The position numbers and the translations under genes are program-made. Below are positions 26,575-60,114 of a DNA stretch of 64,000 nt, piece after piece; positions within the stretch are counted from its first letter, which is position 1, and every line of letters begins with the position of its first letter. This stretch comes from a virus, in IMG/VR virus record IMGVR_UViG_3300050821_024094, positions 10,778 through 74,777 of that record, one strand, 5' to 3'. The notes under the pieces were generated by a model. That model searched no databases, was not told where the DNA came from, and saw only the letters and a list, made by a program, of their open reading frames with translations.

Positions 26575-26704
26575 TGAGAGGTCTCCGTGTGGTAGGGAAG
26601 TGATTTGTTATGAGGGCACGCTTGCCACATGCGCGGGCGCACGCAAGATTAAATCGACGCGCGCGTCACGCTTTTCGAGTACTGTGACCGTTACAGGCAG
26701 AAAT

Positions 26705-26905
26705 TCACACCCCACGAAGCGCCGCGACGATCGCGTGCAGCGCATCAGGACTAATCAGGACGCGGCAGTAGGTCTTGTCGGAGTCCATCGACTGGAGCGA
26801 CGACGCCTTGTCGAGCGCCGCCGCGAGCTTCAGGCGGTAGGCGGGAGTGTCATAGGCCGGGTCAATGGCCGCCGGTTCCTCGGTGAGGATGCTCGTCACG
26901 CTCAT
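26705..26905 (-). CDS. Hypothetical protein
   Basis: AGGA SD directly after terL. Confidence 0.55.
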   Translation of the reverse strand: MSVTSILTEEPAAIDPAYDTPAYRLKLAAALDKASSLQSMDSDKTYCRVLISPDALHAIVAALRGV

Positions 26906-26917
26906 GCTTGATCCTGT

Positions 26918-28480
26918 TCAATGTGAGAAGGCGTATCGGCCCTGGAGCGGGCCACTGGCTGTGACGGTGAGCGCACGGAAAGCGCCGGACGCTGCGTCTA
27001 CCTGGTCATCGTGAGCACCGTTCGGGAACGACGCGAGCTCGTCGAGGAAAGCCTCATTCCAGGGACCGCGCAGGAGCTTGACGTTGCCGGCCTCGGCTTG
27101 GGCGGCGAATGGATCGGCGCGGGTTCCCTTGTCGCCCGTCTCTGCCTCCGAGGTGACGACGTATCCCGCGAGATTGGAGGCGAGCTGGCGCACCTGGAAC
27201 TTGCCGGCCTGGCCGGGGTCTTGCGGGATGCGGATTTTGGTGCCGTAGCCGTCCGAGGTCGCGATGTTCTTCATCGTCGATTCGATAACGCCCGGCGACC
27301 AGCGATCGCGTGCGACGTCACAGATGTAGAAGATGCCCGTCACGGGATCGCGCCCCATGAGCAGTCCGACGGTGTAGTCCGGGTCCGACTTCACGTCGGT
27401 CGAGGACGCCAAGTCCCACGAGCGCACGCGATGGAACGCGACGGAGGCGGGAGCTGCCCCGACGATCTCGAACCAGGTCCGCTTGAAGGTGCCGCCCTCG
27501 CGAGCGGTCGGGCGTTGCTGGAGCTGACCGGCCGCAGCGTGCGAGCCGAGGCGGGTTGACCACTCCGCCAGAATGTCAGCGGTGAAGCGCTCCTTCCACA
27601 GCGGTTCGCCTGGGATGGTGCGAAGGTCGCACCAAACCTCCTTGATCGGCGACTTCTTCCGCACGACCTTGGTCTGGAACCCGATGGGATGGTCCCGCTC
27701 ATAGCTCGCCGGCAGGCAAACAATGTCCCAGCCCATCTCCTTCGCGAGAATGTGGCCCGTGAGATCGCGCTCGTGCGAGCGCTGCATGATGACGATGAAG
27801 ACGCCGGTCTTCGGATTGTTGAGGCGGGTCGGAAGGACCTCGTCCCACACCCGCAGCGTCTCTTCGCGGATGACCTCGCTCTCGATCTCTTTGATGTTGT
27901 GGGCGTCGTCGATGACGATGATGTCAGCGCCGAAGCCGGTGACGCCACCGGAGAACGACAGCGCCATGCGCGAGCCGCCCTGCACCGTGTCGAAGTCGGT
28001 GATGCGGTTCGAGTTGGGGTCAAGCTGGACGCGCTCGCCCCACAGCTTCGCGTACCACTGGCTCTCGATGAGCTGGCGGCACTTCTGCGAGTGCGCGTTC
28101 GACAAGCGGCCCGAATAGGAGATGTAGGCGAACTTCACCCCGGCGCCGTAATGGCGGAACACCTGCTTGCGATACGAAGGATCGCCCGATCGCCGCTTGA
28201 GGTCTTGCAGCCACGTCCAGGCCGGATAGAACACGTTGGCGCCGATCGACTTCATGTGCCGAGGCGGCAGATTGAGGATCAGTCGTTTGATCTGACCGTC
28301 CGCAACCGCTTCGAGGTGATCGCAGACGGCATCGATGTGCCAGTTGGATTGGAAGTCCGCAGGTTCGACGAACGGCCAGCCGAACTTGACGAAGGTGCCC
28401 AAGTCTTGTTCGCAAACCTCCCGCAGTGATGCCGCGATGTTATCGGGCAGGTTCGCGATGTCTTCGGGACGCATAGGCAT
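26918..28480 (-). CDS. terL: Terminase large subunit
   Basis: NLPPRHMKS, IIVIDD, IVIMQR, SWDLA, QDPGQAGK, FPNGAHDDQVDA. Confidence 0.97.
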   Translation of the reverse strand: MPMRPEDIANLPDNIAASLREVCEQDLGTFVKFGWPFVEPADFQSNWHIDAVCDHLEAVADGQIKRLILNLPPRHMKSIGANVFYPAWTWLQDLKRRSGDPSYRKQVFRHYGAGVKFAYISYSGRLSNAHSQKCRQLIESQWYAKLWGERVQLDPNSNRITDFDTVQGGSRMALSFSGGVTGFGADIIVIDDAHNIKEIESEVIREETLRVWDEVLPTRLNNPKTGVFIVIMQRSHERDLTGHILAKEMGWDIVCLPASYERDHPIGFQTKVVRKKSPIKEVWCDLRTIPGEPLWKERFTADILAEWSTRLGSHAAAGQLQQRPTAREGGTFKRTWFEIVGAAPASVAFHRVRSWDLASSTDVKSDPDYTVGLLMGRDPVTGIFYICDVARDRWSPGVIESTMKNIATSDGYGTKIRIPQDPGQAGKFQVRQLASNLAGYVVTSEAETGDKGTRADPFAAQAEAGNVKLLRGPWNEAFLDELASFPNGAHDDQVDAASGAFRALTVTASGPLQGRYAFSH

Positions 28481-28539
28481 GTACGCGCGCCGTCGCCGGC
28501 ACGCGCCCTTTTGTTCTTGTTCTTGGGAGTAGCGGTCGC

Positions 28540-29085
28540 TTACTCGGTCTTCGCGTCGATCACCGGACCGAGCGAGCCGAGCAGTTCCGTCGTCTTCTCC
28601 ATGCCGAGCCTCACCACGGTGTCGAGAAACTCGACCTGCTTGTCCAAAGGCATGGCGGCGAGGTTCAAGGTCGCGAGCGGATGCGGCACCGCCTGCACCT
28701 TGACCGGACCGTCATTGGGCCCGGTGATCTGGTGCGACTCGATGTAGCCGCGATCGCGCGCCTGGCAGCGCAGGAAGAAGCGGATGGACTCCCGATCCCC
28801 CTTCTTGACCGCCTCGAGCAGCTTGCCCTCGCCGAGGTCGATCAGCTCCTCCTTGATGTCGAGCATCGCCTCCTTCAGCTTTGGGGATTCCTCGATCCAT
28901 CGATACAGACTCGAGCGCGCGCAACGCAGGCGTTTGGCGGCGACGGTCTTAAGACCTGCCGACGCGCGCAGCGCTTCGAGGATCAGTTGGTCGGAGGGAC
29001 GGTCATACAGGGACGGACCTGGCGCGATCACGTCATAGGCAGGTTGAGCCTTCTTGGTGCGAGGCTTCTTGGTCTTACTGGTCAT
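28540..29085 (-). CDS. Terminase small subunit-like HTH protein
   Basis: HTH (AAKRLRCARSSLYRW), FFL...RGY, ITGPNDGPV; directly upstream of terL. Confidence 0.75.
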   Translation of the reverse strand: MTSKTKKPRTKKAQPAYDVIAPGPSLYDRPSDQLILEALRASAGLKTVAAKRLRCARSSLYRWIEESPKLKEAMLDIKEELIDLGEGKLLEAVKKGDRESIRFFLRCQARDRGYIESHQITGPNDGPVKVQAVPHPLATLNLAAMPLDKQVEFLDTVVRLGMEKTTELLGSLGPVIDAKTE

Positions 29086-31699: not shown

Positions 31700-31731
31700 A
31701 CGAAAACACCTACCACACGGAGACGACGACG

Positions 31732-32673
31732 ATGACCACGGCCACCGAAACCAAGACGACTGTTGCCCGCAAGACGAAGTTCATTGCCCTCGCGAACGTC
31801 ATCGCGAACCCGAACCAGCCGCGCAAAGATTTCGACGACGCGCATATCCGGGAGCTGGCGAGCTCCATCGCCAAGCACGGACTGATCCAGCCAATATCGG
31901 TGCGCCCGATCGAGAAGGCCGTCGGCAAGACGACGACCTACATGATCATCGCCGGCGAATGCCGCTACCGCGCCCACAAGCTGCTGGCCGAGGAAGGCAA
32001 GCTCGATGCTCCGGTCGTCGAGGCCATCGTTTCAACCGACGTTGACGACACTCAGATGCAGGTGCTCGCCATCATCGAGAACGCCAAGCGCAAGGACGTC
32101 AATCCGATGGAGGAGGCCGACGCCTTCCAATTCCTCCTCGACACCGGCATGACGATCGCCCAGGTCCAGCGCGAGCTGGGCTTCGGCTCCCGAGGCCGGG
32201 TGACCGATCGCCTCAACCTGCTCAAGCTGGAGGACAACGCCAAGACACTGGTGCGCTCCGGTCAGCTCTCCGCCTGCTTCGCCGCAGAGATCGCCACCCT
32301 CCCCGCTCACATGCACACGCGGATGATCCGCAAGGTGTCGACGGGCGAGTTCAAGAGCATCGATCAGATACGCGCCGCCTGCTCGGCCATCCGCGAGGCG
32401 AACGAGCAAGGCAGCATGCTCGGTGGAGCGCCGGCAGCGACCGACGGCGAGATGCGCACGCTCCGCAGCATGGAAGCGCGGATCGACGATGTGCTCAAAA
32501 TGGTCAACGCAGGTTTCAAGGACGGCGAATGCCAGATCGCCAAGAAGGCTGATCCAAACCGCACGACTGCAATGGCCGACAAGCTGGCTGCCGTGCGATC
32601 CGCCATCACGGTGATGGAGTTCCAGCTCCGCAAGGCATCGGCAGTCGCCGACCTGCTCGAAACCGCCGCCTGA
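31732..32673 (+). CDS. ParB/RepB/Spo0J family protein
   Basis: NPNQPRK.F...LA.SI..GLIQPI.VR...IIAGECRYRA; ENAKRKD.NPMEEA; HTH. Confidence 0.92.
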   Translation: MTTATETKTTVARKTKFIALANVIANPNQPRKDFDDAHIRELASSIAKHGLIQPISVRPIEKAVGKTTTYMIIAGECRYRAHKLLAEEGKLDAPVVEAIVSTDVDDTQMQVLAIIENAKRKDVNPMEEADAFQFLLDTGMTIAQVQRELGFGSRGRVTDRLNLLKLEDNAKTLVRSGQLSACFAAEIATLPAHMHTRMIRKVSTGEFKSIDQIRAACSAIREANEQGSMLGGAPAATDGEMRTLRSMEARIDDVLKMVNAGFKDGECQIAKKADPNRTTAMADKLAAVRSAITVMEFQLRKASAVADLLETAA

Positions 32674-32700
32674 GCGACGGCGAACATATCCTGCAAGTTG

Positions 32701-37192: not shown

Positions 37193-37260
37193 CGCAGCGA
37201 CAATGACTCTGACGACCAAAAAAAACGACTTCCCTACCACCCACCGCAACGGAGACGACA

Positions 37261-37443
37261 ATGAAGCCCATCACGGTGCGCCTCGCGCACAACCTTCTCC
37301 ATGGCTGCCTGATACTCGACGGCATCCGAATCCGCCGGCTGGCGGAGTTGCTCACGCTCAGCTTGACCGAGCGCAAAGCACTTATCGCCTACCTCGGTCT
37401 CGATGGGATCGAGCGCATCGCTGACACCTTCGAGCTGGCTTGA
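37261..37443 (+). CDS. Hypothetical protein
   Basis: GGAG SD plus CCCTACCAC motif. Confidence 0.6.
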   Translation: MKPITVRLAHNLLHGCLILDGIRIRRLAELLTLSLTERKALIAYLGLDGIERIADTFELA

Positions 37444-37793: not shown

Positions 37794-37830
37794 CAGCCTT
37801 CCCTACCACCCGAGCAACGAGAGAAAAATC

Positions 37831-38208
37831 ATGAACATCAACATTGAAGTCCCGTCACAGCGCATCGCCGACATGATCATCGGTGCGGTCGAAGGCGGCT
37901 CCACCTATTGGGCCAGAAGCCTCGTACTCAAGTCGACGAAGATCGCCGACCGCGAGAGCCCCTGGTACGCCGACCCGCGCCTCTACGAAGACGAGACGCT
38001 GGAGCTCGAACTGATCGAGGACGAGCCGTCCGCGCCGAACCACGACGGCAAGTACACCATCAAATTCGCCGACTTCGCCAAGGGCCTCACCATCATGGCG
38101 CAGAAGCACGCCTGGCACTTCGGCAACATGATCAGCGAGAACGACGACGCGACGACCGCCGACGTGCTCCTGCAATGCATCGCGCTCGGCGAGCTGGTCT
38201 ACGGCTGA
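37831..38208 (+). CDS. Hypothetical protein
   Basis: EGG..YWA...DA..ADV.LQ....GE.VYG motif. Confidence 0.8.
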   Translation: MNINIEVPSQRIADMIIGAVEGGSTYWARSLVLKSTKIADRESPWYADPRLYEDETLELELIEDEPSAPNHDGKYTIKFADFAKGLTIMAQKHAWHFGNMISENDDATTADVLLQCIALGELVYG

Positions 38209-39552: not shown

Positions 39553-39602
39553 AGCCAAGCCGACGCGGAAAACTGCGCGGCTCCCTACCACGGAGAAGAC
39601 CA

Positions 39603-39992
39603 ATGAACATCCTCACAGGCGAGCGCCTTGCGCGTACCGCCCCGGTGCGCAAGCGCCGACCAGCCATCACCACCACCACTCCCGACGTCACCGAGTACGT
39701 CGTCCATTGGCGAACCTACACCGCGCGACAAGTCTGGCTCGCCGGCGCCGAGGTCTACGCTTGCAAGGACAAGATGCTTCGCGAGATTTACGCCGGCGCG
39801 GTGAACACCGTGCAGCGCGTCATATCCTACAACGCGGCCGAAGGATGGGCGCATGACGTGAGCGCAGACGTCGCCCAGGAGATCGCCGACCGCTTCAACT
39901 CGACGGGCGACTCCATCGAACGGTCGCTCATCAATTTCCTCCACGACCACCTCGGCGTCGAGTCGACGCTTGAGCTCAACACGGAGGAGTGA
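39603..39992 (+). CDS. Hypothetical protein
   Basis: GGAG SD plus motif; RVI.YN..EGW..DVS.D.A pattern. Confidence 0.75.
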   Translation: MNILTGERLARTAPVRKRRPAITTTTPDVTEYVVHWRTYTARQVWLAGAEVYACKDKMLREIYAGAVNTVQRVISYNAAEGWAHDVSADVAQEIADRFNSTGDSIERSLINFLHDHLGVESTLELNTEE

Positions 39993-40235: not shown

Positions 40236-40333
40236 CCATGCCTTGGGTCGCGCTCTTCCTCGGTTTCTGGGCCGGCGACACGGTTGCATAAATAAGAACT
40301 TCCCTACCACCGATAAGCAACGAGGAATTGAGA

Positions 40334-40507
40334 ATGAGTATCGGCGAAGAACAGCGACTCCGATCGGAGATCGCATTCATCGAACAGCGTTACGACGGCC
40401 ACTACCCGAAGTCGATCTGGGCAGTCCTCGAAATCTACCAGCGCGAGCTGGCCGAATGCCTCGCCAAGAAGGACGCCGCTCCGAGCACTGGAGCTGCACA
40501 ACAATAA
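40334..40507 (+). CDS. Hypothetical 57-aa protein
   Basis: Manual ORF MSIGEEQRLRSEIAFIEQRY...; GAGG SD plus motif. Confidence 0.6.
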   Translation: MSIGEEQRLRSEIAFIEQRYDGHYPKSIWAVLEIYQRELAECLAKKDAAPSTGAAQQ

Positions 40508-40572
40508 GCCACTGAGAACCGAGGAGCCGGATCAACCGGCCCTCTCCATCCCTACCACCAGGATCAATCCCC

Positions 40573-42117
40573 ATGCTCGATGTCACCACCGGCGCGCTCG
40601 CGCGCTGCAGCGAAGACGTCACTCAAGACCGGCCGACCGACACCGGTATTGTCCCGCGCGACACGGTCGAGACCATCGTGCGCAACCGCGACCGCGCATT
40701 GGAGCTCTACTGCCTCGCCCACCAGGCCCTGAACACCGCGAACGAAGCTGTCGCCGGAGCGGCAGGAGCAACACGTGACCTCTGCCCAGGAGAGAACCGT
40801 TACAACCACCATCTCAGCAGCGAGAAGGCCCATTGGCTCAAGCCAGGCCGAGTGCCGTCGCGCGAAGACTACATGGCGACCGCGCGCAAGATCACGGACA
40901 CAGATGTCTGGTCGCACCTGATCGCGATCACCGACCTTGAGAAGCTCATGGATCGCAAGGCGAAGGACGAGTTCTCGCGGCAGCTTCAAGACGATCCGCC
41001 TGAGGTGACGGTCGACAACGTGTTCGCGACACTTGAGCACTTCATGGCGGACGCCGGCACCATCTTCCGGCGCGGCATCGCCAATTGCTTCTCCAGCCTC
41101 GATCGCCGGTTCAAGTCACACGACGGTTTCAAGATCGGGAGCCGCGTGATCCTCACCCACATGTTCGATGGGTTTGGCCACATGAACTATCACCGCAACA
41201 CCGAGGCGACGCTCATCGACATCGACCGCACGTTCCGCCTGCTCGACGGAAAGAAGGACTGCGACGTCTACACCGGCATCGTCGGCGCGCTGCGCAACGA
41301 CCGCACGGGTTGGGGCGCTCGGCAGACCGAGACGCACTCTGACTACTTCAAGGTCGTCGGCTACATGAACGGCAACGCGCACATTTGGTTCAAGCGCGAC
41401 GACCTGCTCGAGAAGGTCAACAAGATGCTCGCCGAATACTACGGCGAAACAATCGGCGACGGAAACGACCGCGACGATGGCGGACTGTTCACACCCAAGA
41501 CGACGCTAGCGAAGCACTACGGCTTCTACCCGACGCCGGATGAAGCATCGAAGACGATCATCGACATGGCCGGGCTCTATCGAGAGAAGGGCATGCCTGC
41601 GCTCCGCATCCTCGAACCGTCCGCCGGCACCGGCAACCTCGCGCGGCGTTGCGTGCGAGGATACGGCGAAGGGCACGAGAGCGTGTCGTATCACGCTCGC
41701 GAGCGCATCGCATCCGAGCCCAACCTGGTCGACTGTGTCGAGGTGCAGGCCAATCTCGCCAGCGACCTCAAGGCCGAGGGCATTTATCGGAAGGTCTACG
41801 CCCAGGACTTCCTCACGCTGCAACCCGTCGGCCTCTACGACCGCGTGGTGATGAACCCGCCGTTCGATCGGGAGCGCGACATTGATCACGTCATGCACGC
41901 GCTCAACTTCCTCGCCGACGACGGCGTGTTGATCGCGATTATGTCGGCAGGCACCGAGTTCCGCGAGACGCGCAAGGCAACCGCCTTCCGCGCGTTGATG
42001 AAAAAAATGAACGCCCACTGGCGCGATCTGCCGGCCGGATCGTTCTCCTCCGTCGGCACGAACTGCAACACGATCGTGCTGAAGGTCAGCAAGAACGGCC
42101 GGCACTTCTATCACTGA
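40573..42117 (+). CDS. DUF4942-type DNA N6-adenine methyltransferase
   Basis: FYPTP, LEPSAGTGNL, VVMNPPF; N-terminal helical domain. Confidence 0.88.
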   Translation: MLDVTTGALARCSEDVTQDRPTDTGIVPRDTVETIVRNRDRALELYCLAHQALNTANEAVAGAAGATRDLCPGENRYNHHLSSEKAHWLKPGRVPSREDYMATARKITDTDVWSHLIAITDLEKLMDRKAKDEFSRQLQDDPPEVTVDNVFATLEHFMADAGTIFRRGIANCFSSLDRRFKSHDGFKIGSRVILTHMFDGFGHMNYHRNTEATLIDIDRTFRLLDGKKDCDVYTGIVGALRNDRTGWGARQTETHSDYFKVVGYMNGNAHIWFKRDDLLEKVNKMLAEYYGETIGDGNDRDDGGLFTPKTTLAKHYGFYPTPDEASKTIIDMAGLYREKGMPALRILEPSAGTGNLARRCVRGYGEGHESVSYHARERIASEPNLVDCVEVQANLASDLKAEGIYRKVYAQDFLTLQPVGLYDRVVMNPPFDRERDIDHVMHALNFLADDGVLIAIMSAGTEFRETRKATAFRALMKKMNAHWRDLPAGSFSSVGTNCNTIVLKVSKNGRHFYH

Positions 42118-42157
42118 CTCAAGATCTAACCATCCCTACCACCAGGAGCAGACAACG

Positions 42158-43663: not shown

Positions 43664-43693
43664 AACATGGATCAGGAAGCGGTGAATCGCAAG
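43664..43693 (-). promoter_or_regulatory. Sigma70-like promoter of candidate sRNA
   Basis: (C)TTGCGA at 43692-43687, 17-bp spacer, CATGTT at 43669-43664. Confidence 0.55.
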
Positions 43694-44080
43694 ATGGCGC
43701 CTGCCCTAAATGTTAACGCCAGTGCCGCGACCAGGTCCGAGTGCAGAGCTTGCATTCGACCCGTTCAATCAGAACCTCCCGGCTAGTGCTTAGGCCGATG
43801 ACGTCCGTCTCCGCCCCAAGCGGGCAGATGCAAGGGACGGCGCGGGCCTCGGAGACTTTGGCGGCCTTATCAACCGGCCGCTCGGCGGTGAGAACATCAC
43901 ATTCGGAGATCATGGTTTGGCCTGGAGGTTGCCCAGGCACAGATGCGCGTCCTCGCGCGCGCACGCGCGAGAGATGACCGATCGGAATGTGTCTGGAAAT
44001 GCGAAACGCAAACGGGCCCCACCTGGGGGCCCGCGCAAGTTCCGCCGAATCTATTTATTTGTTAGCACGGTTGAGCAAGG

Positions 44081-44692: not shown

Positions 44693-45015
44693 CACACCAC
44701 CAGATCGTCTTCGGCCGGCAACGATAGCTCGAGCCGCGCACTGGAGCGCTGCACAAGGTAGATCGCCTCCATCAGGTCGGGAGAGCGATCCTGGATCATG
44801 AAAACCTCGCCGCGTTCGTGCGCCAGACACACTTCGACCGCGAGAGCCTGGAGCACGATGCGCTGGTCGCCGGGCAGGTTGGAGAACTCGAGACTCTTGT
44901 CGCCGGCGAGGTTGCCTTGGTGGTAGATCGCGTAATCGCCGGCCTTCGCCATACGCAAGAAGACCTTGAACTCGTCCGCAGTGGTGACCGTGGTGGGTTT
45001 TTTCTTGGTGCTCAT
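44692..45015 (-). CDS. Hypothetical protein
   Basis: A..GD..IYH.GNLA.D pattern; GGAG SD plus motif. Confidence 0.7.
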   Translation of the reverse strand: MSTKKKPTTVTTADEFKVFLRMAKAGDYAIYHQGNLAGDKSLEFSNLPGDQRIVLQALAVEVCLAHERGEVFMIQDRSPDLMEAIYLVQRSSARLELSLPAEDDLVV

Positions 45016-45068
45016 TGGTCGATGTCTCCGTGGTGGTAGGGATTGTGTTGTGTGTTTTTTGTGAGAGC

Positions 45069-45527
45069 TCAGAAGGGGATTTCGTCGTCGAGCTCGTCGC
45101 GACGAGACGTCTGCGGACCATCTGCCGGCGGAGGAGTGCCGGCGTCCGCCGGGCGATTGCCCTTGTTTTGGTCCCAGGCTTTGCAGCGGATGATTTGCAG
45201 CTCGGATTTGAACGGCCGCAGCACGACCTCGGTCGCGTAGCGTTTGCCACCACCCTGGTCTTCCCAAGAGCGGGTCTCGAGCTGGCCCACGATCATGATC
45301 TGATCGCCCTTGGCGAGGTACTGTTCGATGACCTTCACCAGGCCATCGGCCCAGACGACGACGCGGTGCCACTGCGTCTTCTCCTTGCGCTCGCCCGTGC
45401 TCTTGTCCTTCCAGCTTTCCGAGGTGGCGATCGAGAGCGTCGCGAGCTTCGCACCGTCGGCGAGAGCTTTGACTTCGGGGTCCTGGCCGAGATTGCCGAG
45501 CAGGATGACTTTGTTCATTGCAGCCAT
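45069..45527 (-). CDS. ssb: Single-stranded DNA-binding protein
   Basis: NKVILLGNLGQDPE, TQWHRVV, LDDEIPF tail. Confidence 0.97.
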   Translation of the reverse strand: MAAMNKVILLGNLGQDPEVKALADGAKLATLSIATSESWKDKSTGERKEKTQWHRVVVWADGLVKVIEQYLAKGDQIMIVGQLETRSWEDQGGGKRYATEVVLRPFKSELQIIRCKAWDQNKGNRPADAGTPPPADGPQTSRRDELDDEIPF

Positions 45528-45542
45528 GTGGTAGGTCTCCGT

Positions 45543-50278: not shown

Positions 50279-50863
50279 TTAGAGCCTCCGGTGCGCGTGC
50301 TCCCCCATCGGGGGCGGCGGCTTGAAGGGCATGTCGATGTCGTGAAGGATCAGATCGACGCTGGCGTAGAGATCCTTGAGCGAGCCATCGTTGTGAATGA
50401 CGTAGTCGCCCTGGATGTCGTGCCGCTCGCTTTCGTGATTGGCGTGAGCCGTGGTGGTACCGTCCCTCACGATCTGGATGATCTTGCCGGCGCGCTGGCG
50501 GACCGCCTCTGCTTCGTTGGGGAAGCGGACGTCGTCGGCAACGATCCAGTACCGAAAGAACGAGTCGACGCGGGCATTCCAGATGTTGGTCCAGATGTCC
50601 CCGCCGATTTGATCACGGCCCCACTCGGTCCCGATCGTGATCATCGCGAAGCGCGGGCTCTTGCCGCAAAGCAGCTTGCACGACTGATCCTTGAGCGAGC
50701 CTTCGATCTGGTCCTCCGTGAGCCCGATGGCGCGCAGCATGTCCTTGAGCGGGTCAGCGAACTTCACGACCTTGAAGCCGTGCATGCGCGTGAGATAGCG
50801 GGCGACCTCTGACTTTCCGCAGCCGGCGCGACCGTGCAGGCCGATGATGGCGGGATCACGCAT
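50279..50863 (-). CDS. Deoxynucleoside monophosphate kinase
   Basis: GLHGRAGCGKS, FADPLK, SPR..M.TIGTEWGR, DDVRFPNEA, HESE. Confidence 0.92.
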   Translation of the reverse strand: MRDPAIIGLHGRAGCGKSEVARYLTRMHGFKVVKFADPLKDMLRAIGLTEDQIEGSLKDQSCKLLCGKSPRFAMITIGTEWGRDQIGGDIWTNIWNARVDSFFRYWIVADDVRFPNEAEAVRQRAGKIIQIVRDGTTTAHANHESERHDIQGDYVIHNDGSLKDLYASVDLILHDIDMPFKPPPPMGEHAHRRL

Positions 50864-51344
50864 AGCGCTGCGCTCCAGCACACAGCGGCTTCGGTTGAGG
50901 CGAGCCAGTGCGGTTGACGTGGGACTGGATGCCGCGATGAACGCCGGAATGATCGAGGAGATTGAGGAAGCCCGCGATGTGAGCCAGGCTCCAGCCGGTG
51001 TCGCGACGGATCAGGTACATAAGCTCCTGACGCGCGGTCGTGACCGGGAGACGCTTGCTATAGCCCTTGATGACGTGTTCCGGGATGGCGTGGCGCGTGC
51101 AGACGTCCTCCGTATGGTGGCGAGCGATCGCCGGCCAATGATGCCGGATACTCGGGGAGAGCGTCGCGGGAAGCGGAGTGATGGCGCCTTTGACTGGCGC
51201 TGTCGCCAGTTCCCGGCTCGCCGGCGGGGCCTGAGTGTCTTTCTTCGCAGTGAAGGCGGAACCAGCCGCCGCCATACGGGCTTTGACATCTCGGTAGCCG
51301 CGCACGAGATCGCGGCCCGAGCTGGGCTCGGTGTTCAAGTTCAT
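50856..51344 (-). CDS. Protein with DnaA C-terminal-like HTH
   Basis: ARQELMYLIR..T.WSL..IA......DHS.V..G. Confidence 0.75.
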   Translation of the reverse strand: MNLNTEPSSGRDLVRGYRDVKARMAAAGSAFTAKKDTQAPPASRELATAPVKGAITPLPATLSPSIRHHWPAIARHHTEDVCTRHAIPEHVIKGYSKRLPVTTARQELMYLIRRDTGWSLAHIAGFLNLLDHSGVHRGIQSHVNRTGSPQPKPLCAGAQRYA

Positions 51345-51427
51345 GTGGTAGGGTCTCTGTTAGATTTTATTTGGAGGGCGGCGTGGCCGGTTTATCCGAC
51401 CACGCCGTAGTTCGAAGGGCTCGTCGT

Positions 51428-52330: not shown

Positions 52331-53098
52331 ATGACCAGCGACAAGAACACGCCATATGCGATGCAACTGGCGGATATCCTTGCGAGAATCGAATCGCGAC
52401 AGAAGGTGGTCGGACTTAGTGACCACGCCGCCAGTCTCGAGGCAGGGCTGTCTCGTGACGCAATCCGAAGCATGCGCCGCGGCTTGAAGGACGGCAAACA
52501 AGAGGGGGTGCAGTCCAGAACTATCCGCGCGCTCGCGGCACCCCTGCACACGACACCTGAATGGTTGATGACTGGCGAAGGGCCGGAGTCTCTCGACGCC
52601 GACGAGATTGCACCGCGTGCGCCCTTCCTCGAGGTGGTGGGAGAGATAGCCGCTGGCGTGTGGATTGCGGCAGACAAGCACTTGGTCGACCCGCCGCGCC
52701 TGCCTTATTTGGTCCCTCCAGACCCCATGTATTCGCAGTCAGCGCAATTTGCGCTGATCATGCGCGGCTCATCGTTCAACCGATACGCCGCAGATGGCGA
52801 CGCCGTCATTTGCATCGACGTGCGGCGGGCGAACCTGCGACTTCAGAACAACGATTTGGTTTTGGCCTGGAGCGTTCAAGTCGGCGGCTCCCTGAGAGAA
52901 ATCACGGCGCGTCGACTGCATCTGCAGCGAAACGGTACTGGCGAGCTCACCTATGAATCGACGGATGATCGCTTCGCGTCGACGACCGAGCGCGTCTCAC
53001 TGCGAGACGAAGGCCGTGTGACTAAAGTCGGAGCAGCGGAGATTTCAGTCACTGCCGTCGTGTGTGGCATCTATCGCTCCGTGCCACGCGGAAATTAG
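52331..53098 (+). CDS. cI: CI-like repressor (HTH plus S24 domain)
   Basis: HTH ...LA..L.TTPEWL.TGEG; VVGEIAAG.W; MRGSSFN...DGD. Confidence 0.88.
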   Translation: MTSDKNTPYAMQLADILARIESRQKVVGLSDHAASLEAGLSRDAIRSMRRGLKDGKQEGVQSRTIRALAAPLHTTPEWLMTGEGPESLDADEIAPRAPFLEVVGEIAAGVWIAADKHLVDPPRLPYLVPPDPMYSQSAQFALIMRGSSFNRYAADGDAVICIDVRRANLRLQNNDLVLAWSVQVGGSLREITARRLHLQRNGTGELTYESTDDRFASTTERVSLRDEGRVTKVGAAEISVTAVVCGIYRSVPRGN

Positions 53099-53585: not shown

Positions 53586-53969
53586 GTGCTCCCTACCACA
53601 CTCTCTCCCTATACGAGCGGCCCAGGTCGCCCGGCCTATCAACGGCGCGTGCTCGCCAAGGCGAACGGCGCGCTCGTCATCACCTTCGTCCTGAGCAAAG
53701 ACGTAGCAGCCTGCATCGGCCTCAAGCCGGGCGGCCGTTTCTGTGTGGAGCTCGAGCAGACGCGGATGGTGCTGCGCGCGACGCACGCCGACTTCGGCGG
53801 CAAGGCCACTGCTTTCGGGAACCAGGTCAGCGTCAACATCCGAGGCGCGTTTCTCGCGCGCGACGTTCCCGCTGAGCCCGTTGAGCTCTCCCATCAAATT
53901 CGAGACGGCGAGCTGATCGTCGATCTCTCCCAGCTCCCTACCACGGAGAATCAACGGAGAAACGCATGA
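53586..53969 (+). CDS. Hypothetical protein, first gene of PL operon (possibly AbrB-like)
   Basis: GAGGA SD, GTG start; LSKDVA..IGLKPG.R. Confidence 0.65.
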   Translation: MLPTTLSPYTSGPGRPAYQRRVLAKANGALVITFVLSKDVAACIGLKPGGRFCVELEQTRMVLRATHADFGGKATAFGNQVSVNIRGAFLARDVPAEPVELSHQIRDGELIVDLSQLPTTENQRRNA

Positions 53970-54694
53970 CACAGAGACCAGACGACCTGCACAGGCAGGT
54001 GGAGGCCGCCAAGCAATTGCGGCTCCAGATCGCACTACTCGTTGCCGGCGAGAGCGCCGAAGCGATCGGGCAAGAGCTGAGCGAGGATGATCGCCGCGCG
54101 ATACAGGACACGTTCGAGGGTGAGACGAGCCTCGATGTTGAGCTCGAACGCGCGATCGCGGCCGAAGACGAAGACCTGATCCTGATCGAGGGCATCAGGA
54201 AGCGCGAGGACGAGCTGAGCGCCCGTCGCAAGCGGTACGAGAAACGCAAGGAGGCGCGTCGCGGCCTGATTGAGCAGGCGATGACGGTCGCTGGTTGGAA
54301 GAAGAAGGAGACCGCGCTCGGCACACTCTCGCTCGGCAGGGGATCGGCGAAGGTCGCGACTGACGACGAGAGCAAAATCCCCGTCGACTACTGGAAGCGA
54401 GCGGAGCCGACCCTCGACAAGACCACGCTCGGCGCAGCGCTACGCGAGCACAAGAAGGCGGTCGAGGAAGCGCTCAAGATCAGGGATGCGTATTCGCGCA
54501 GCGAAGCCCTGCTCCGGCTCTCGAACAAGCTGCCCCAGGCGGAGACGGTCAACGCCCGGATCATCGATGCTGTGATGCTCAACGACCCGGACGCGCAGTG
54601 CGAAGCGCTCGCAGCGATCCTCGCGAGCACGTCTCCCATCCCAGGCTGCCATCTCGAAATCGGCGGTCCGTCCCTCACCATCACCAGGAAGTGA
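53966..54694 (+). CDS. Siphovirus Gp157-like protein
   Basis: DT.EGET, coiled coil, DESKIP..YW...PTLDK..L...L, IPG.HL. Confidence 0.8.
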   Translation: MTQRPDDLHRQVEAAKQLRLQIALLVAGESAEAIGQELSEDDRRAIQDTFEGETSLDVELERAIAAEDEDLILIEGIRKREDELSARRKRYEKRKEARRGLIEQAMTVAGWKKKETALGTLSLGRGSAKVATDDESKIPVDYWKRAEPTLDKTTLGAALREHKKAVEEALKIRDAYSRSEALLRLSNKLPQAETVNARIIDAVMLNDPDAQCEALAAILASTSPIPGCHLEIGGPSLTITRK

Positions 54695-54697
54695 GCC

Positions 54698-55872: not shown

Positions 55873-56375
55873 AGGTCGATGTCGAGACACCCAAGCTGCT
55901 GTTGCTGCACACGCCGCAGCACGCGCTGGTCCCTGCCACTCAGTACGACCTGGAGAAGCTGTGCAGGTACGGCGTCGGCCACGTCATCGAGGCGAAGCTG
56001 TGGCAGGAACGGTCGATCAAGCAACACCGACTCTATTGGGTCGCGCTGGGCATCGTTGCAGAGAACAACGAGGTGTGGACGAGAGCGGAGGTGGTCCACC
56101 GGAATATCAAAAAGGCGCTCGGCTATGTCGAGACCTACTTCGATTTCTTCGGCGTCGAGTGTGAGTACGTCCAATCCACCGGCTTCAACGCGATGGATCA
56201 GGGCGCCTTCAAAGAATACTTCGACCAGGCGATGGAGCTCATCCGGCTGCATTTCAAGGTCGATATCGACGAGTTGCTGAAAGAGAGCCGGCAAAGACTG
56301 GCTCCGCAGCGCCACTTCCCTACCACGCACCGGAGCAACCATGAACATCGTCGACTTCCTGCGCAGCAACATTAG
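55869..56375 (+). CDS. DUF1367-like protein
   Basis: RS.KQHR.YW...K..LG...S..F..MDQ..F..YF. Confidence 0.7.
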   Translation: MKVDVETPKLLLLHTPQHALVPATQYDLEKLCRYGVGHVIEAKLWQERSIKQHRLYWVALGIVAENNEVWTRAEVVHRNIKKALGYVETYFDFFGVECEYVQSTGFNAMDQGAFKEYFDQAMELIRLHFKVDIDELLKESRQRLAPQRHFPTTHRSNHEHRRLPAQQH

Positions 56376-56637
56376 GACCCGGAAGGCCGCCCGTAAGCGG
56401 TACATCCATCTCGTCTCGACGTCCAAGGTGATCGGCGGTGTGCCTCACTTCCGCAACGCAGCGGCAAGAGCGCGAGCCAAGGGTATCCACGAGAACGCCG
56501 CGAAGGGCGATCTGGTGATGATCGAGGTCAAGCGCTCGGTCTTCGTCGACGGCTCGAAGCACCCGCCATCCATCCTGCGCAAGGTCACCGCAGCGAAGGG
56601 TGTCGGCCGCCCTCCCCTCCAGCAAGAAGCGGAGTGA
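56341..56637 (+). CDS. Hypothetical basic protein
   Basis: GGAG SD plus motif. Confidence 0.65.
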   Translation: MNIVDFLRSNIRTRKAARKRYIHLVSTSKVIGGVPHFRNAAARARAKGIHENAAKGDLVMIEVKRSVFVDGSKHPPSILRKVTAAKGVGRPPLQQEAE

Positions 56638-56831: not shown

Positions 56832-57325
56832 TCCTGCCCGCCGGGACGTTCAAAGTCAGCGACTACCGCAAGGCGGTCCCCGTCTACGTCAAGCTCGCGG
56901 TGCTGATCCGCCAGGAGTGCAAGGACACGGGCGGCGAACGGTTTGAGGACGACGTGGAGCTGGAGTTCGATCACTCGCCGGCCCTGGTCAATCGCGACTA
57001 CGACACCGAGGCCGGCGATTTCATCCCACCGCAGAACGATCCGAAGTTCATCGTCGCGAGCCGCAAGGCCGAACACCTGGAGAAGACGACGGGCCGAAAG
57101 GCGGGAGCAGAGAAGACAGTGACCACGCGCGGGAGTGATGTGGGCGAAGCCGCCCGCACGCGCGGGATCAAGCGAACCCAGGCCGCGCACCAAGCGCGGA
57201 TGGAGGCGAAGCAGATCGGCGCCGAGGTTCCGGTCGAACCAATCCGCAAGCGAACGCGGAAGATAGCGAGCCGACCATTCTCGAAAGAGCGGCGGCCATT
57301 CCCTACCAGCCAACGGAGAGCATGA
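56828..57325 (+). CDS. HNH-like nuclease
   Basis: EFDH.PAL...ND......H..KT. Confidence 0.65.
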   Translation: MILPAGTFKVSDYRKAVPVYVKLAVLIRQECKDTGGERFEDDVELEFDHSPALVNRDYDTEAGDFIPPQNDPKFIVASRKAEHLEKTTGRKAGAEKTVTTRGSDVGEAARTRGIKRTQAAHQARMEAKQIGAEVPVEPIRKRTRKIASRPFSKERRPFPTSQRRA

Positions 57326-57816
57326 TGAGCGACCTGAAGGAATCCATTGATGCCGCACGCGAGACGTTGCTCCGTGTCGGAGGTCCCACCGTCAACGTCG
57401 GCGGCCGCGTCGAGGGGATCGTCGCCCACATCCGCAAAGAGCTCGACGAGATCCGAGTCGATCCGAGCGACGTCATCGAGTACGCCGACGTCTTCATTCT
57501 CGCGATCGACGCGGCTTGGCGCGGCGGGGCATCGAACGACGAGATCGTGGAGATGTTCACCCAGGTCGACCAGTTCGACGACGTCCAGCCGGTCACTGAT
57601 CTGGAAGAAGCGCTCGCCCTGCTGTGTCACTTCCCTCGCACGCTCCACGCTTGCTGTGTCGTGATGGCCTGCGCGAAGCGGATGGCAGCGGATGCCGGGT
57701 TCGACGAGGCCGCCTTCCGGGATGCCCTCGATCGCAAGATCGCGATCGTCGGGACGCGCAAGTATCCACCGATGGTCGAGGGCCGCCCCTTCGAGCATAT
57801 CCGCGAACCTACCTAG
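57322..57816 (+). CDS. DUF550-like dNTP pyrophosphohydrolase
   Basis: G...HIRKELDEI...P.D..EYADV.ILA.D...R.G; K......R.YP.....P.EHIR. Confidence 0.7.
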   Translation: MMSDLKESIDAARETLLRVGGPTVNVGGRVEGIVAHIRKELDEIRVDPSDVIEYADVFILAIDAAWRGGASNDEIVEMFTQVDQFDDVQPVTDLEEALALLCHFPRTLHACCVVMACAKRMAADAGFDEAAFRDALDRKIAIVGTRKYPPMVEGRPFEHIREPT

Positions 57817-57928
57817 TATTTATGTGAGTGGCCGCCATTTTTACTTGACTGGAAGCGCCGGCCTGTAAGTATCCATCCGCCAACAAAAAGTAACGACGTC
57901 CCTACCACAAAGATCAACGGAGAATCCA

Positions 57929-59044
57929 ATGAAGCTATCAATCGAGCGCTCCGCGCTCCTCAAAGCCGTCAACGCAGTTCGCGGCTCGGTCGAGCGCAAG
58001 GCAACAATCCCCATCCTCGCCAACGTGCTCCTCGCTGCGAGCGGCGAACAACTCTCCATCACCGGAACCGATCTTGACATTGAGTGCCGCACTGTAGCGC
58101 CGGCCGAAGTGTCGAAGCCCGGTCAGATCACGGTGGCCTGCGAGATTTTGCGCGACATCGCCTCCAAGGTCGGTGCGAGCGACAAGATCAGCATGGAGGT
58201 CGAGAAGGGCGGCGACACCCTGATCGTGAAGTCTGGGCGCTCGCGCTTCAAGCTCAACACCATCCCGGCGACTGACTTCCCCTCGCTCAATGTCGGGAAG
58301 TTCGACGCCACATTTGTGATTACGTCCGATCACTTGACTGGGCTGTTCAGCAAGACAGAGTTCGCGATCTCGGACGAGGCGACGCGCTACTATCTCTGCG
58401 GCACCTACCTGCACCCGATCGCGCGCGACAATGCGTCGGTCCTGCGCGCGTGCGCAACCGACGGCCATCGCCTTGCGATGATCGATGTGGATGGGCCCGA
58501 GGGTTCGCACGCTATGCCCGGCGTGATCGTCCCGCGCCGGACGGTGACCCAGGTGATCGCGCTCTGCGATACCGCCGACAGCGTCACGGTCGAGGTGTCG
58601 ACGTCCAAGATCACGTTTGAAACCGAGACGACCAAGCTCACGTCCAAGCTGATCGATGGGCAGTTCCCCGACTACATGCGCGTCGTCCCGCTGGGGAACG
58701 ATAAGCCGCTGAGCGTTGCACGACAGGACTTTGTCGATGCCATCGCGAGAGTGTCGGCGATCAAGACCGAGCGCAGCCCGGCCATGAAGCTCTCGATGGG
58801 TGACGGGGCCGTGGTGCTCTCGATGGCGAACTCGGACACCGGCACCTCGTCAGACGAACTCGACGCCGAATACGTTTCCGACCCGATGGAGATCGGATTC
58901 AACTCTCGCTACCTCGCCGAGATTTGCAGTGAGATCGACGCGGATCGGATCGAGCTCAAACTGGCTGATCCGGGCTCGCCCACCATCATCGCTCCGGTCG
59001 GCGACAGCGGTGCGACCTACGTGCTCATGCCCATGAGAGTTTGA
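57929..59044 (+). CDS. dnaN: DNA polymerase III beta sliding clamp
   Basis: TIPILANVLL, TDLD, TRYYL.G, ATDGHRLA, SKLIDG.FPDY.RV, IGFNSRYL, VLMPMRV. Confidence 0.97.
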   Translation: MKLSIERSALLKAVNAVRGSVERKATIPILANVLLAASGEQLSITGTDLDIECRTVAPAEVSKPGQITVACEILRDIASKVGASDKISMEVEKGGDTLIVKSGRSRFKLNTIPATDFPSLNVGKFDATFVITSDHLTGLFSKTEFAISDEATRYYLCGTYLHPIARDNASVLRACATDGHRLAMIDVDGPEGSHAMPGVIVPRRTVTQVIALCDTADSVTVEVSTSKITFETETTKLTSKLIDGQFPDYMRVVPLGNDKPLSVARQDFVDAIARVSAIKTERSPAMKLSMGDGAVVLSMANSDTGTSSDELDAEYVSDPMEIGFNSRYLAEICSEIDADRIELKLADPGSPTIIAPVGDSGATYVLMPMRV

Positions 59045-59142
59045 GGCGCGGCGGACTACCCCTCTGCCAAACCTCAATCGAGAGGCGGGGCCGATAAACT
59101 TGGCTCCGGTCCCGCCTCTCAAATCTCTCGGGACACGACTCC

Positions 59143-60114
59143 ATGACCGTCTTTCGCGTTTGCGACATCGAAACTACCGGCATTGACCCGGAGCAGCACG
59201 CGATCGTGGAGATCGCCTGCACGGACGTCGTCGACCGCCAACTTGCTACTGAGTACAGTTCGCTGGTCAAGCCGCCTCACCCGATCCCGCCCGAGGCGAT
59301 GGCTGTCCACCACATCACCGATGCCGACGTGGCAGACGCCCCAGAGGCGCGCGAGATTGTCCCGTTGTTCCTCGGGACTGACTACCGCGACATGATCTAT
59401 GTCGCTCACAATTCACAGTTCGAGCAGGGTTTCCTAGCGCCCTACGTTCCCGGCGCGCGCTGGCTCTGCACCTTCAAGTCGGGCCTGCGAGTGTGGCCGG
59501 ATGCCCCCGGTCACTCCAATCAGGTGCTTCGTTACGTGCTTGGCCTCCAGCTTTCACCTGGCGCTCCGCACCGCGCAGGACCCGACACCATTGTCACGGC
59601 GAACATTCTCCTGGAGCTCCTAAGGCACGCGAGTGTCGAGGACATGCTCGCATGGACGATGGAGCCGCCGATCTTCAAGACGGTGAGGTTCGGAAAGAAG
59701 CATCGCGGCGAGCCGTGGGTCGACCTGCCGCAGGACTACCTGCTCTGGATCATCGAGAAGTCCGACCTCGACGACGACACGAAGTGGAACGCCAAGCGCG
59801 TGCTGAAGATGCGGCGTGCGGAGGCCGAGAAGAAGACCAACGAAGCGCGCAACGCCTACACCGCGCTGGCCGTGCAAGCCGCTGCGATCGCCCTCACCGT
59901 CGCAGACCTTGAGACCTGGTTTCGAGGCGAGACGGCCAACCGATCCAAGCACGGCGTCTATCCCAACACCCCACCCTACAAGCGGATTGTTGATGCCTGT
60001 GCGGCGCGTAAAGCCGCGCTGAGCCCGAAAAAAGAAGCGACCATCACCATCCCTACCACGGAGAAAACGAATGCCAGAGACCCAGAGTACGGTTCGCTCC
60101 TACCGCCCATCTAA
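59143..60114 (+). CDS. Exonuclease X-like DEDDh 3'-5' exonuclease with DUF3820-like domain
   Basis: DIETTG, VAHN..FE, HRA..D, FGK.HRG....LP.DYL.W. Confidence 0.9.
   Translation: MTVFRVCDIETTGIDPEQHAIVEIACTDVVDRQLATEYSSLVKPPHPIPPEAMAVHHITDADVADAPEAREIVPLFLGTDYRDMIYVAHNSQFEQGFLAPYVPGARWLCTFKSGLRVWPDAPGHSNQVLRYVLGLQLSPGAPHRAGPDTIVTANILLELLRHASVEDMLAWTMEPPIFKTVRFGKKHRGEPWVDLPQDYLLWIIEKSDLDDDTKWNAKRVLKMRRAEAEKKTNEARNAYTALAVQAAAIALTVADLETWFRGETANRSKHGVYPNTPPYKRIVDACAARKAALSPKKEATITIPTTEKTNARDPEYGSLLPPI

Follow-up and report, generated by a model that had tools for sequence, protein, structure and literature searches.

The tag CCCUACCAC marks the translation starts of about 17 mostly early genes in this phage, and it is probably the target half of a phage-encoded antisense sRNA regulon that would act by occluding ribosome binding. 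One small RNA probably controls translation of the whole tagged set. This reading draws on direct observations: how often and where the motif occurs, its presence in other phages, the RNA-gene architecture of its mirror (reversed) copies, strand-specific covariation of the seed hairpin, and, in two other lineages, tags and mirrors that have changed to match.

In the proposed mechanism, the target is the tag, which sits in the ribosome-binding window of the leading gene in each of about 17 clusters with early, replication, recombination, partition and accessory functions. The partner would be an RNA of about 105 nt made from its own promoter on the minus strand (43553-43657), with GUGGUA displayed in a hairpin loop. 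Pairing would start at this loop, extend over 9-13 bp and reach into or beside the Shine-Dalgarno sequence (SD) through the adjacent CUCCU/UCU. The paired sRNA would keep the 30S subunit from binding and reduce translation of every tagged gene at once, and translational coupling would carry the repression on to the downstream genes. Production of the sRNA, pairing in vivo, repression rather than activation, and timing in lysogeny or late infection are proposed from the sequence. The seeds of the type found in contig G408 leave the SD uncovered, which weighs against the occlusion reading on the direction of control.

Number of motif copies

The window is the whole 64,000-nucleotide stretch that was analysed, positions 10778-74777 of a 74,777-bp record. 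It contains 15 exact copies of CCCTACCAC, compared with a mean of 0.12 and a maximum of 1 in 100 dinucleotide-preserving shuffles. The first-pass annotation had claimed an excess over chance with 15 copies, and the k-mer count agrees with it. When up to one mismatch is allowed there are 26 matches in the window, compared with 6.0 expected, and the whole record has 17 exact copies, compared with about 0.1 expected. The three 8-mer variants reported earlier were found as one-letter variants, ACCTACCAC at 31708 (parB) and at 45528 (ssb), and CCCTACCAG at 57301 (a DUF550-like gene). All the motif coordinates given in that annotation proved correct, with starts 1-3 nt lower where a flanking (C)TT had been counted in.

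Five alphaproteobacterial genomes have 2-21 copies of the motif each, compared with 40-127 for the reversed control word, and only one genome in a sample of 401 from the order to which a Rhizobium genome belongs contains TCCCTACCACNGGAG. In the bacterial genomes searched, the motif is thus rare and is not a general host start signal. All the sequencing runs that contain this DNA are soil metagenome DNA, and the soil phages with this system are probably alphaproteobacterial. No record of the phage collection that was searched shows similarity to it. The 9-mer is nearly invariant across phages with few genes in common, which fits a multi-target constraint but also a shared host factor.

Placement of the motif at gene starts

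In the whole record, 16 of the 17 exact copies are sense to an ORF start, as the first-pass annotation had described. The gap from motif to start is 0-23 nt (0-21 by scan and up to 23 by gene calls), except for one copy that lies inside codons 2-5 of the ORF starting at 53586. The sole copy without a sense ORF start is at 43607-43615. Some sites are found within operons, some directly follow the stop codon of the preceding gene, and others lie between SD and ATG or in codons 2-5; all these positions fall inside the ribosome-binding window, about -32 to +14. In relatives, the motif adjoins GGAG directly and the ATG follows 10-11 nt further. The tagged genes are mostly heads of translationally coupled early, replication or accessory clusters. 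A-rich tracts can be read in the sequence upstream of several targets.

On the minus strand, the copy at 45033..45041 precedes the gene at 44692-45015, and the ssb gene (45069-45527) has the variant ACCTACCAC at 45528..45536 between its SD and ATG. The ssb gene of the related contig G411 carries CCCTACCAT in the same order of SD, motif and ATG. The copy at 51345..51353 adjoins the ATG of the gene at 50856-51344, with an SD-like GAGA upstream.

On the plus strand, the parB-like gene (31732-32673) is preceded at 15 nt by ACCTACCAC (31708..31716). A 60-aa gene (37261-37443) follows the copy at 37232..37240, and its SD region, GCAACGGAGACG, is also predicted to pair over 12 bp with the 5' segment of the sRNA. 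Further copies precede the genes at 37831-38208 (phrog_2355; motif at 37801..37809) and 39603-39992 (39583..39591, adjoining GGAG), the latter with an orthologue in G411 that has the motif too. A 57-aa gene (40334-40507; motif at 40302..40310), a DNA methyltransferase gene (40573-42117; 40550..40558) and the gene at 42158-42502 (42134..42142), which heads a coupled pair with an M48 peptidase gene, are tagged as well. The copy in codons 2-5 (53591..53599) belongs to the first gene of the rightward early operon (GTG at 53586) and lies downstream of TTGACG-N17-TAGCGT. The remaining copies precede a Gam-like gene (53966-54694; motif at 53936..53944), the gene at 56341-56637 (56318..56326), the gene at 57322-57816 (phrog_4826; variant CCCTACCAG at 57301..57309), dnaN (57929-59044; 57900..57908) and the gene at 60071-60379 (phrog_6074; 60051..60059, adjoining GGAG).

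The earlier claim that no copy occurs at structural genes stands in that no recognisable virion gene is preceded by the motif, but three copies do sit in the packaging and tail arms. The other 14 of the 17 are in the early arms. The three are at small genes to which no function is assigned. One copy (26589..26597, minus strand) is 14 nt before the ATG of a 90-aa gene (26302-26574) located between terL and the portal gene. Two more lie beyond the window (genome positions 1308 and 3260, minus strand), at genes whose neighbours are a CHAP-domain gene and a baseplate-hub gene.

The candidate small RNA

The mirror copy at 43607-43615 is in an ORF-less region between a conserved small gene, gene X, and a strong minus-strand terminator. 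In silico, minus-strand positions 43553-43657 have the make-up of a discrete RNA gene, with a promoter-like element, a Rho-independent terminator and a stable predicted fold (z-score -6.2). The candidate sRNA of about 105 nt consists of a 5' hairpin, a seed hairpin and the terminator. The seed hairpin is GCUCCU[GUGGUA]GGGAAGC, with the seed GUGGUAGGG at 43615-43607, and the terminator is a 14-bp hairpin (43590-43559) followed by UUCUUUUU. The promoter-like TTGCGA-N17-CATGTT (43664..43692, minus strand) has weak hexamers, and a consensus scan reported no promoter. Directly upstream of the sRNA is gene X (43713..43913, minus strand), which is small and Cys-rich (zinc-ribbon-like) and is 37% identical to a syntenic ORF of G411. 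The orthologous locus in G411 keeps TTGCGA-N17-CATNTT, the seed CUGUGGUAGGGA and a terminator, and the remainder has diverged; the promoter hexamers and their spacing are conserved while the spacer sequence is not. A point against the antisense reading is that, on the plus strand of this phage, AGGAG and a GTG at the head of a 51-codon frame come after the mirror copy.

Pairing of 9 bp or more between the SD region and the sRNA segment 5' of the seed is predicted for 9 of 18 tagged genes, compared with 19 of 94 others. An Rfam search of the RNA locus with E up to 1 gave no family match, with one weak chance match elsewhere in the stretch, and the family model of P1/P7 c4 (Rfam C4) did not match at the locus. 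No gene for the chaperones Hfq or ProQ was noticed among the roughly 48 annotated phage proteins.

Conservation and covariation in other phages

At least seven further soil viral contigs have the same layout of tag and mirror, with 4-20 copies each and at least one ORF-less mirror copy in each. Six of the seven have a terminator-like hairpin and its T-rich tail after the mirror copy; the hairpin in G414 is without a T-run. G408, G412 and L282 have a single-stranded seed within the 3' UTR of parB, with unrelated hairpins on one side of it and the terminator on the other. Strong terminators on the anti-motif strand (dG <= -20, T tail) are found at copies without a convincing sense ORF and are absent from ordinary start-associated copies, a contrast that takes in one case, L281, at scan level only.

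When the seed hairpins of the eight contigs are aligned, 91.1% of the cells are paired on the anti-motif strand, compared with 66.1% on the sense strand. Since the helix is well paired only on the anti-motif strand, the G-U pairs identify the strand of the RNA. Four of the seven pairs have changed on both sides, and the covariation score was reached in none of 500 shuffles. The target bases at -1 and -2 also track the sRNA flank of their own phage (C:G in G413 and U:A in the others; C:G at -2 in G411), a weak effect.

Two ParB-related phages use other tags, CUGCCAC and CAGCCAC, and their terminator-adjacent mirrors are altered to match, GUGGCAG and GUGGCUG. G419 has the tag CUGCCAC, with the mirror in the hairpin UCUGC[GUGGCA]GCAGA between a 5' hairpin and the terminator. 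G418 has eight forward copies of TCAGCCACG and one reverse copy, CGUGGCUGA, located 3 nt before the terminator. Across lineages the pairs of tag and seed are CUACCAC/GUGGUAG, CUGCCAC/GUGGCAG and CAGCCAC/GUGGCUG. No partner RNA was found in G415, G416 and G417, lineages with their own tags, and their lone reversed 8-mers look like chance matches in coding DNA. The matched changes in G418 and G419 exclude a fixed host factor, although they do not by themselves exclude a phage-encoded protein; covariation of tag and mirror is compatible with a protein as well, because any site bound by a protein would, if present in reverse as well, change along with its sense copies.

Alternative explanations

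The alternative that survives best, though it is unlikely, is an RNA element read by a protein, of the T4 RegA or MS2 coat-protein hairpin type, or a cis extension of the ribosome-binding site, with the mirror copies being incidental. The start-associated copies are sense-only and inside the ribosome-binding window, the 9-mer is almost invariant, as with a fixed reader, and the G411 consensus CUCC-CUACCAC-GGAG can fold so that its SD and an internal anti-SD form a 4-bp stem around a conserved 7-nt loop. However, this stem is not conserved, with C at -1 in G413 and A at -2 in G408 while GGAG lacks a compensating change. A fixed host reader is unlikely because tags differ between related lineages, and a candidate shared phage protein was not found in the genomes compared. 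A reader of sense RNA also gives no reason for the reversed copies in the 3' UTRs or sRNA-like units of all eight genomes.

It is rather improbable that the motif serves as an asymmetric DNA operator, bound by a phage or host protein that would block transcription in a stoperator-like, orientation-dependent manner, with the reversed copies halting read-through from convergent genes. Cluster A mycobacteriophages likewise have stoperators as many short, asymmetric sites oriented with transcription (PMC3203893). The odd copies in this phage, G411 and G408 are at convergent-gene junctions, and covariation of the tag with a mirror copy is expected for an operator too. However, stoperators are bound as DNA by the immunity repressor and are scattered over both arms with no tie to start codons, whereas the sites here track the SD and start codon rather than promoters, with a gap of 0 to GGAG in most of the relatives' copies and one site in codons 2-5, and they have a candidate RNA partner. 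The repressor of this phage is of the CI/S24 type and would be expected to use palindromic operators, and TerL is the sole protein family common to all six other genomes compared. An operator also leaves unexplained the mirror copies in loops or single-stranded linkers before terminators and the pairing on one strand.

It is very improbable that the motif is a promoter element, -10-like or used by a phage-directed RNA polymerase, that gives each tagged gene its own transcription start. TACCAC is loosely like a -10 hexamer, operator- or promoter-like sequences precede several copies in relatives, and at two genes the motif directly adjoins the ATG (gap 0), as leaderless transcripts might require. 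But no conserved element, -35-like included, is found upstream of the motif, and a start about 7 nt past it would strip the conserved GGAG from the mRNA. Promoter-proximal copies have a separate -10-like TAAGTT about 20 nt upstream, which places the motif within the 5' UTR, and no RNA polymerase or sigma-factor gene turned up among the approximately 48 annotated proteins. The first-pass annotation had favoured an mRNA-level site over a promoter because the position relative to SD and ATG varies while the sense orientation stays constant. The lack of a -35-like element and the spread of sites across the ribosome-binding window support that preference, as do the GGAG adjoining the motif in relatives and the complementary RNA gene that covaries with the tag.

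It can hardly be upheld that the 13-15 nt unit has no regulatory role and serves chiefly as a gene-boundary linker for recombination, by which mosaic phages would swap early-gene cassettes: the same unit heads unrelated genes in phages sharing few proteins and the set of tagged orthologues differs between this phage and G411, but strict sense orientation, fixed distance to the start codon, mirrors in RNA-gene architecture and lineage-specific tag changes matched by the mirror are left unexplained, though recombination could still be a side effect.

Comparison with known systems

The closest known analogue of the proposed antisense regulon is the start-associated sequence (SAS) of Cluster K mycobacteriophages; the motif described here may work like the SAS but is not a member of that family. 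The SAS is a short asymmetric motif of 11-19 copies a few nucleotides upstream of start codons, in the non-structural half of the genome only, in one orientation and rare in the host genome, with one reverse copy independent of any gene start (Pope et al. 2011, PMC3203893). This phage similarly has 17 exact copies and three variants of a short asymmetric repeat, sense and upstream of starts (0-23 nt here, 10-11 nt in relatives), and one reverse copy off gene starts (43607-43615) with equivalents in seven other contigs. In phage Adephagia, the strand that is transcribed has a 20-bp hairpin whose 10-nt loop contains the lone reverse SAS copy, an arrangement parallel to the seed hairpin of this phage. 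The differences are that the SAS consensus GGGATAGGAGCCC contains the SD, whereas the 9-mer here has a different sequence and sits beside it, and that the motif of this phage varies more in how far it lies from the start (0-23 nt). The SAS phages also infect hosts of another phylum and have no genes in common with this phage, and the ESAS inverted repeats are absent here. The role of the SAS was still termed unknown in papers from 2024-2025, and it is without a published antisense partner.

Like multi-target trans-acting sRNAs, the candidate is a terminator-bearing small RNA with a short conserved seed in a loop or linker and with seed matches in the ribosome-binding regions of many mRNAs. The A-rich tracts upstream of several targets are a further similarity. 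The CI RNA of P4 is a phage-encoded antisense RNA immunity factor. The c4 RNA of P1/P7 is another (PMC12197685). The phage sRNAs listed in that review, VpdS of VP882 and PreS of lambda among them, regulate host genes or else one or a few targets in a phage. Unlike these sRNAs, the candidate would target the phage's own genes through a near-invariant 9-mer instead of loose complementarity. It resembles c4 and CI as a putative trans-acting antisense RNA whose loops would pair with short repeated sites near the RBS and hold lytic functions down. However, c4 and CI act at two sites within one operon and arise by processing of the transcript that they control, whereas there are about 17 dispersed sites here and the candidate RNA either comes from a promoter of its own or forms a 3' UTR. 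T4 RegA is a translational repressor protein with a loose sequence preference. As with RegA, many early mRNAs would be controlled together at their translation-initiation regions, but the candidate effector here is an RNA and its site is near-invariant.

Implications for temperate phages

It is possible, and can be put forward only tentatively, that a set of start-associated tags with a single mirroring small RNA is a general, unrecognised form of translational regulon for early genes in temperate phages, with lineage-private tag and seed pairs that co-evolve, and that the SAS of Cluster K follows the same principle. If so, the function of the Cluster K SAS, open since 2011, would be explained by a principle seen in these soil phages, and the Cluster K partner would be the hairpin with the single reverse SAS copy, in the gap between gp92 and gp93 of Adephagia. 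Common tags could then define groups of phages that cross-regulate or exclude one another through RNA.

Placement of the tag

The nine-letter tag CCCTACCAC has 15 copies in the window, where 0.12 would be expected, and 17 across the full record of 74,777 bp (~62% G+C), of which the window covers bases 10778-74777. Three one-mismatch variants, at 31708, 45528 and 57301, belong to parB, ssb and a DUF550-like gene. With the gene calls made in this analysis, all exact copies except one are sense to an ORF start, and the 3' end of the tag is 0-23 nt from the start codon. The commonest order is tag, 0-11 nt, an SD-like GGAG, 5-8 nt and ATG. For ssb and gene 51344 the tag is found between SD and ATG, and at 53591 it provides codons 2-5 of the first gene after a TTGACG-N17-TAGCGT promoter. 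The first-pass annotation had placed the motif at translation starts, always in sense and at a variable position relative to SD and ATG; this placement is confirmed, the single odd copy apart. Upstream of the tag only the T at -1 is conserved, often within CTT or CAT.

Tagged genes include a methyltransferase, dnaN, a Gam-like gene, ssb, parB and many small genes without assigned function. Most have an intergenic gap before them and are thus leaders of translationally coupled clusters. The earlier statement that structural genes lack the motif holds for recognisable virion genes, none of which is tagged, and has to be amended for the late arm, where three copies each accompany a small gene without assigned function.

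Some features of individual sites were also noted. The unusual SD-tag-ATG order of ssb is kept in both the window (45528-45536, ACCTACCAC) and contig G411 (~1296-1312, CCCTACCAT). Gene 53586-53969 encodes Leu-Pro-Thr-Thr twice by means of the tag (53589-53600 and 53934-53945), at codons 2-5 through its own copy and near the C-terminus through the copy of the next gene. A-rich tracts, odd at 62% G+C, are seen just 5' of many copies (37210-37231, 45042-45065, 51354-51375, 57880-57899 and 60025-60045) and may be where a chaperone or S1 binds.

The candidate small RNA gene

The odd copy (43607-43615) is part of a putative minus-strand RNA gene at 43553-43657, in which its reverse complement forms the seed (43615-43607). 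Along that strand, a small Cys-rich gene, which has 37% identity to its syntenic ORF in G411, ends with its stop codon; next come TTGCGA-N17-CATGTT, a 5' hairpin, the seed hairpin GCUCCU-GUGGUA-GGGAAGC, and a 14-bp stem and then UUCUUUUU. The fold z-score of the locus is -6.2, and Rfam holds no family matching the candidate RNA. G411 is genuinely related to the window phage, many of its proteins being 40-65% identical. Its orthologous locus retains CTTGCGATTCA and CATCTT, again 17 nt apart, as well as CUGUGGUAGGGA and a terminator; three parts have diverged from those of the window, namely the spacer, the 5' hairpin and the sequence of the terminator.

The strand of the seed hairpin was assessed in an alignment of eight mirror copies (reverse complements of the tag) from eight contigs, with a 7-bp stem and the loop GUGGUA. 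On the anti-motif strand 91.1% of the cells are paired versus 66.1% on the sense strand, a difference due to G-U pairs, which are present on the anti-motif strand only. Both strands have four of seven pairs changed on both sides, and for neither did any of 500 shuffles match the covariation score.

The phage and its relatives

The proteins of the record suggest a temperate phage with an alphaproteobacterial host. DnaN shares 44% identity with the DnaN of Rhizobium phages and TerL ~45% with its counterparts in Methylobacterium and Rhizobium prophages, and the gene at 52331-53098 encodes a CI-like repressor that contains an S24 peptidase domain. No nucleotide relatives of the window were found in phage or plasmid collections, and its DNA was matched in ten soil-metagenome DNA sequencing runs only. 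The record ends fall within the 3' parts of convergent ORFs (genome 1-1290 and 73503-74777, the latter being window 62726-64000). Both ends cut ORFs, so the contig is probably incomplete or arbitrarily opened.

Pattern scans of IMG/VR gave many contigs of 60-64% G+C with several tag copies, among them G001 (7 copies), G408 (12), G411 (20 in 39.5 kb), G412 (9), G413 (6) and G414 (4). In these six the tag nearly always adjoins GGAG, with ATG 10-11 nt further on. G001 has little in common with the window phage except TerL, and no other protein family is common to all six records compared. When relatives were sought through the M48 peptidase, G411 alone was found.

At least one mirror copy without an ORF is present in each of seven other records. 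In six of the seven a terminator-like hairpin and a T-rich tail come next on the anti-motif strand; the G414 copy has a hairpin without a T-run. The RNA predicted for the relatives would be ~70-110 nt long, carry GUGGUAGGG and end at the predicted terminators. Strong anti-strand terminators are found at copies without a convincing sense ORF and are absent from ordinary start-associated copies. Over all loci, anti-strand terminators accompany 9 of 49 ORF-less copies versus 10 of 111 others, a weak contrast because chance single copies dilute it; the separation is seen for strong terminators only. A scan with the G001/G408 terminator hairpin returned only four near-identical contigs.

One mirror copy in G408, G412 and locus L282 lies in the parB 3' UTR, where it is unpaired and has an unrelated hairpin on one side and the terminator on the other. 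A second, stand-alone mirror locus has a Y-shaped fold, a seed hairpin and then a terminator-like hairpin (G001 46087, G408 21728, G412 22974, G414 24555). These four contigs thus seem to encode a pair of RNAs that share one seed, with the second in the parB 3' UTR. Palindromic GTAACC-N5-GGTTAC operator-like sites occur 5' of several tagged genes in G001 (43590-43630, 45300-45335) and G408 (22430-22470, 24440-24475, 28620-28655). In G001 one such site also precedes the stand-alone mirror-copy RNA, and its presence 5' of both RNA and targets suggests a shared repressor. The tag and mirror system occurs widely among soil phages that have not been cultured and also in the proviruses of sequenced isolates, for example in the related records IMGVR_UViG_2847686936_000003, 2791355118_000001 and 2756170239_000002.

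Covariation of tag and mirror

Relatives found by the motif are biased towards it, so 80 loci were collected by a motif-independent search with a ParB alignment. Several ParB loci (L302, L305, L308, L320, L336 and L319, from IMG/VR) have other tags directly 5' of GGAG, namely TCAGCCAC, (T)CTGCCAC, CCCCTGCCA, AACCAAAC, CCTTCCGA and AAAACTTG. In L320 a small hairpin, GCCGCC-UGCAAA-GCGGC, precedes every tag copy. De novo counting of 9-mers across all loci was uninformative, as GC-rich noise dominated.

Two contigs with other tags have a mirror copy to match. G418 has eight forward copies of TCAGCCACG and a single reverse one, which reads CGUGGCUGA and stands three nt 5' of a terminator. Of three reverse copies of the G419 tag CTGCCACG, one folds as UCUGC[GUGGCA]GCAGA; a 5' hairpin precedes it and a terminator follows, which repeats the three-part arrangement of the window. 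With CUACCAC/GUGGUAG in the window, three tag/seed pairs are known, and a fixed host reader is thereby ruled out. For the other tags of G415, G416 and G417 no partner RNA was found; their lone reverse 8-mers lie in unstructured, probably coding DNA and look like chance matches.

In the five alphaproteobacterial genomes examined the 9-mer is under-represented, and the motif-plus-SD pattern occurs in one of 401 genomes sampled from one order; for the genomes searched, a general host signal is rejected. In the TerL-related prophages of Methylobacterium and Rhizobium the tag has five copies in 1 Mb, which is taken as absence. Searches of literature text matched the 9-mer only to primers and aptamers. 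To our knowledge, neither the 16S rRNA 3' end, helix 44/45 nor tRNA contains a convincing complement of the tag.

Mechanism and alternatives

All the evidence is in silico. Seed and tag would pair over 9 bp, and the flanks match to a small extent: in the window phage targets prefer CUU 5' of the tag and the RNA has AAG 3' of the seed, in G411 the preference is for CU and the RNA has AG, and in G413 all targets have C at -1 and the RNA has G. The sequences adjoining the seed (UCU, CUCU or CUCCU) can pair with GGAG, which gives up to 13 contiguous pairs as read from the G411 and G413 sequences. In 9 of 18 tagged genes versus 19 of 94 others, the SD region can pair over 9 bp or more with the part of the RNA that lies 5' of the seed. 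RNAduplex energies over the whole length did not tell targets apart from the remaining genes, and the four target sites with variants in the tag are too few for a test of wobble compatibility.

Target positions in the window span -32 to +14, and an RNA bound in this range is expected to block 30S binding, an established action of sRNAs. It is proposed that the antisense sRNA represses translation of the tagged genes together, and coordinated repression of this kind is considered probable, if well short of certain. Activation in its place is possible, since some seeds leave the SD uncovered.

Recognition of the tag by an RNA-binding protein, or a hairpin acting in cis, would likewise operate on the mRNA and is given a small chance; both leave the conserved mirror copies unexplained, and the CUCC/GGAG stem of a cis hairpin is not kept across phages. 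A DNA operator of the stoperator type is slightly less probable again. Tag and mirror would covary in that case too, but the SD-bound placement, the site at codons 2-5 and the one-strand hairpin are left unexplained. The tag is very unlikely to be a promoter element. As a -10 it would place the transcript start 3' of the conserved GGAG, and promoter-proximal copies in relatives have a separate -10-like TAAGTT ~20 nt 5' of the tag, which puts the tag inside the 5' UTR. A recombination linker, like the promoter a poor fit, deserves the least credence of all. The comparative evidence thus supports the earlier preference for an mRNA-level site over a promoter element.

A (C)TAAGTTATTGA-like element is also seen ~20 nt 5' of the tag in several lineages, irrespective of tag sequence (G411 7856, 13368, 15195 and 17343; G408 17778; L305 2477 and 4387; L336 703). 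It may be a common promoter -10 region or an operator.

Significance

The closest described system is that of the start-associated sequences (SAS) of Cluster K mycobacteriophages (PMC3203893), whose role was still called unknown in papers of 2024 and 2025. The system described here is not SAS, as sequence and host differ. In Adephagia (JF704105) there are 16 forward SAS and one reverse. The reverse SAS is found in the gp92-gp93 gap, which has no annotation (L296:662-713 = 58661-58712). The transcribed strand there folds into a 20-bp hairpin (dG -33.7, z -3.7) with this SAS as its 10-nt loop, CCUCCUAUCC. This hairpin is a candidate antisense partner of the 16 forward SAS.

The phage sRNAs covered by a 2025 review target host genes or one or a few phage genes (PMC12197685). 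If repression by the antisense sRNA is correct, one small RNA would control ~17 genes of its own phage through a near-invariant nine-letter tag. It would do as an RNA what translational repressors such as T4 RegA do as proteins. The presence of the system in proviruses of sequenced isolates makes a bench test possible, and the tag/seed pairs could serve as compact, orthogonal translational switches. Cluster K includes phages that serve as tools of mycobacterial genetics and are under consideration as therapeutics, and the same mechanism, if true, would offer a concrete, testable account of their SAS.
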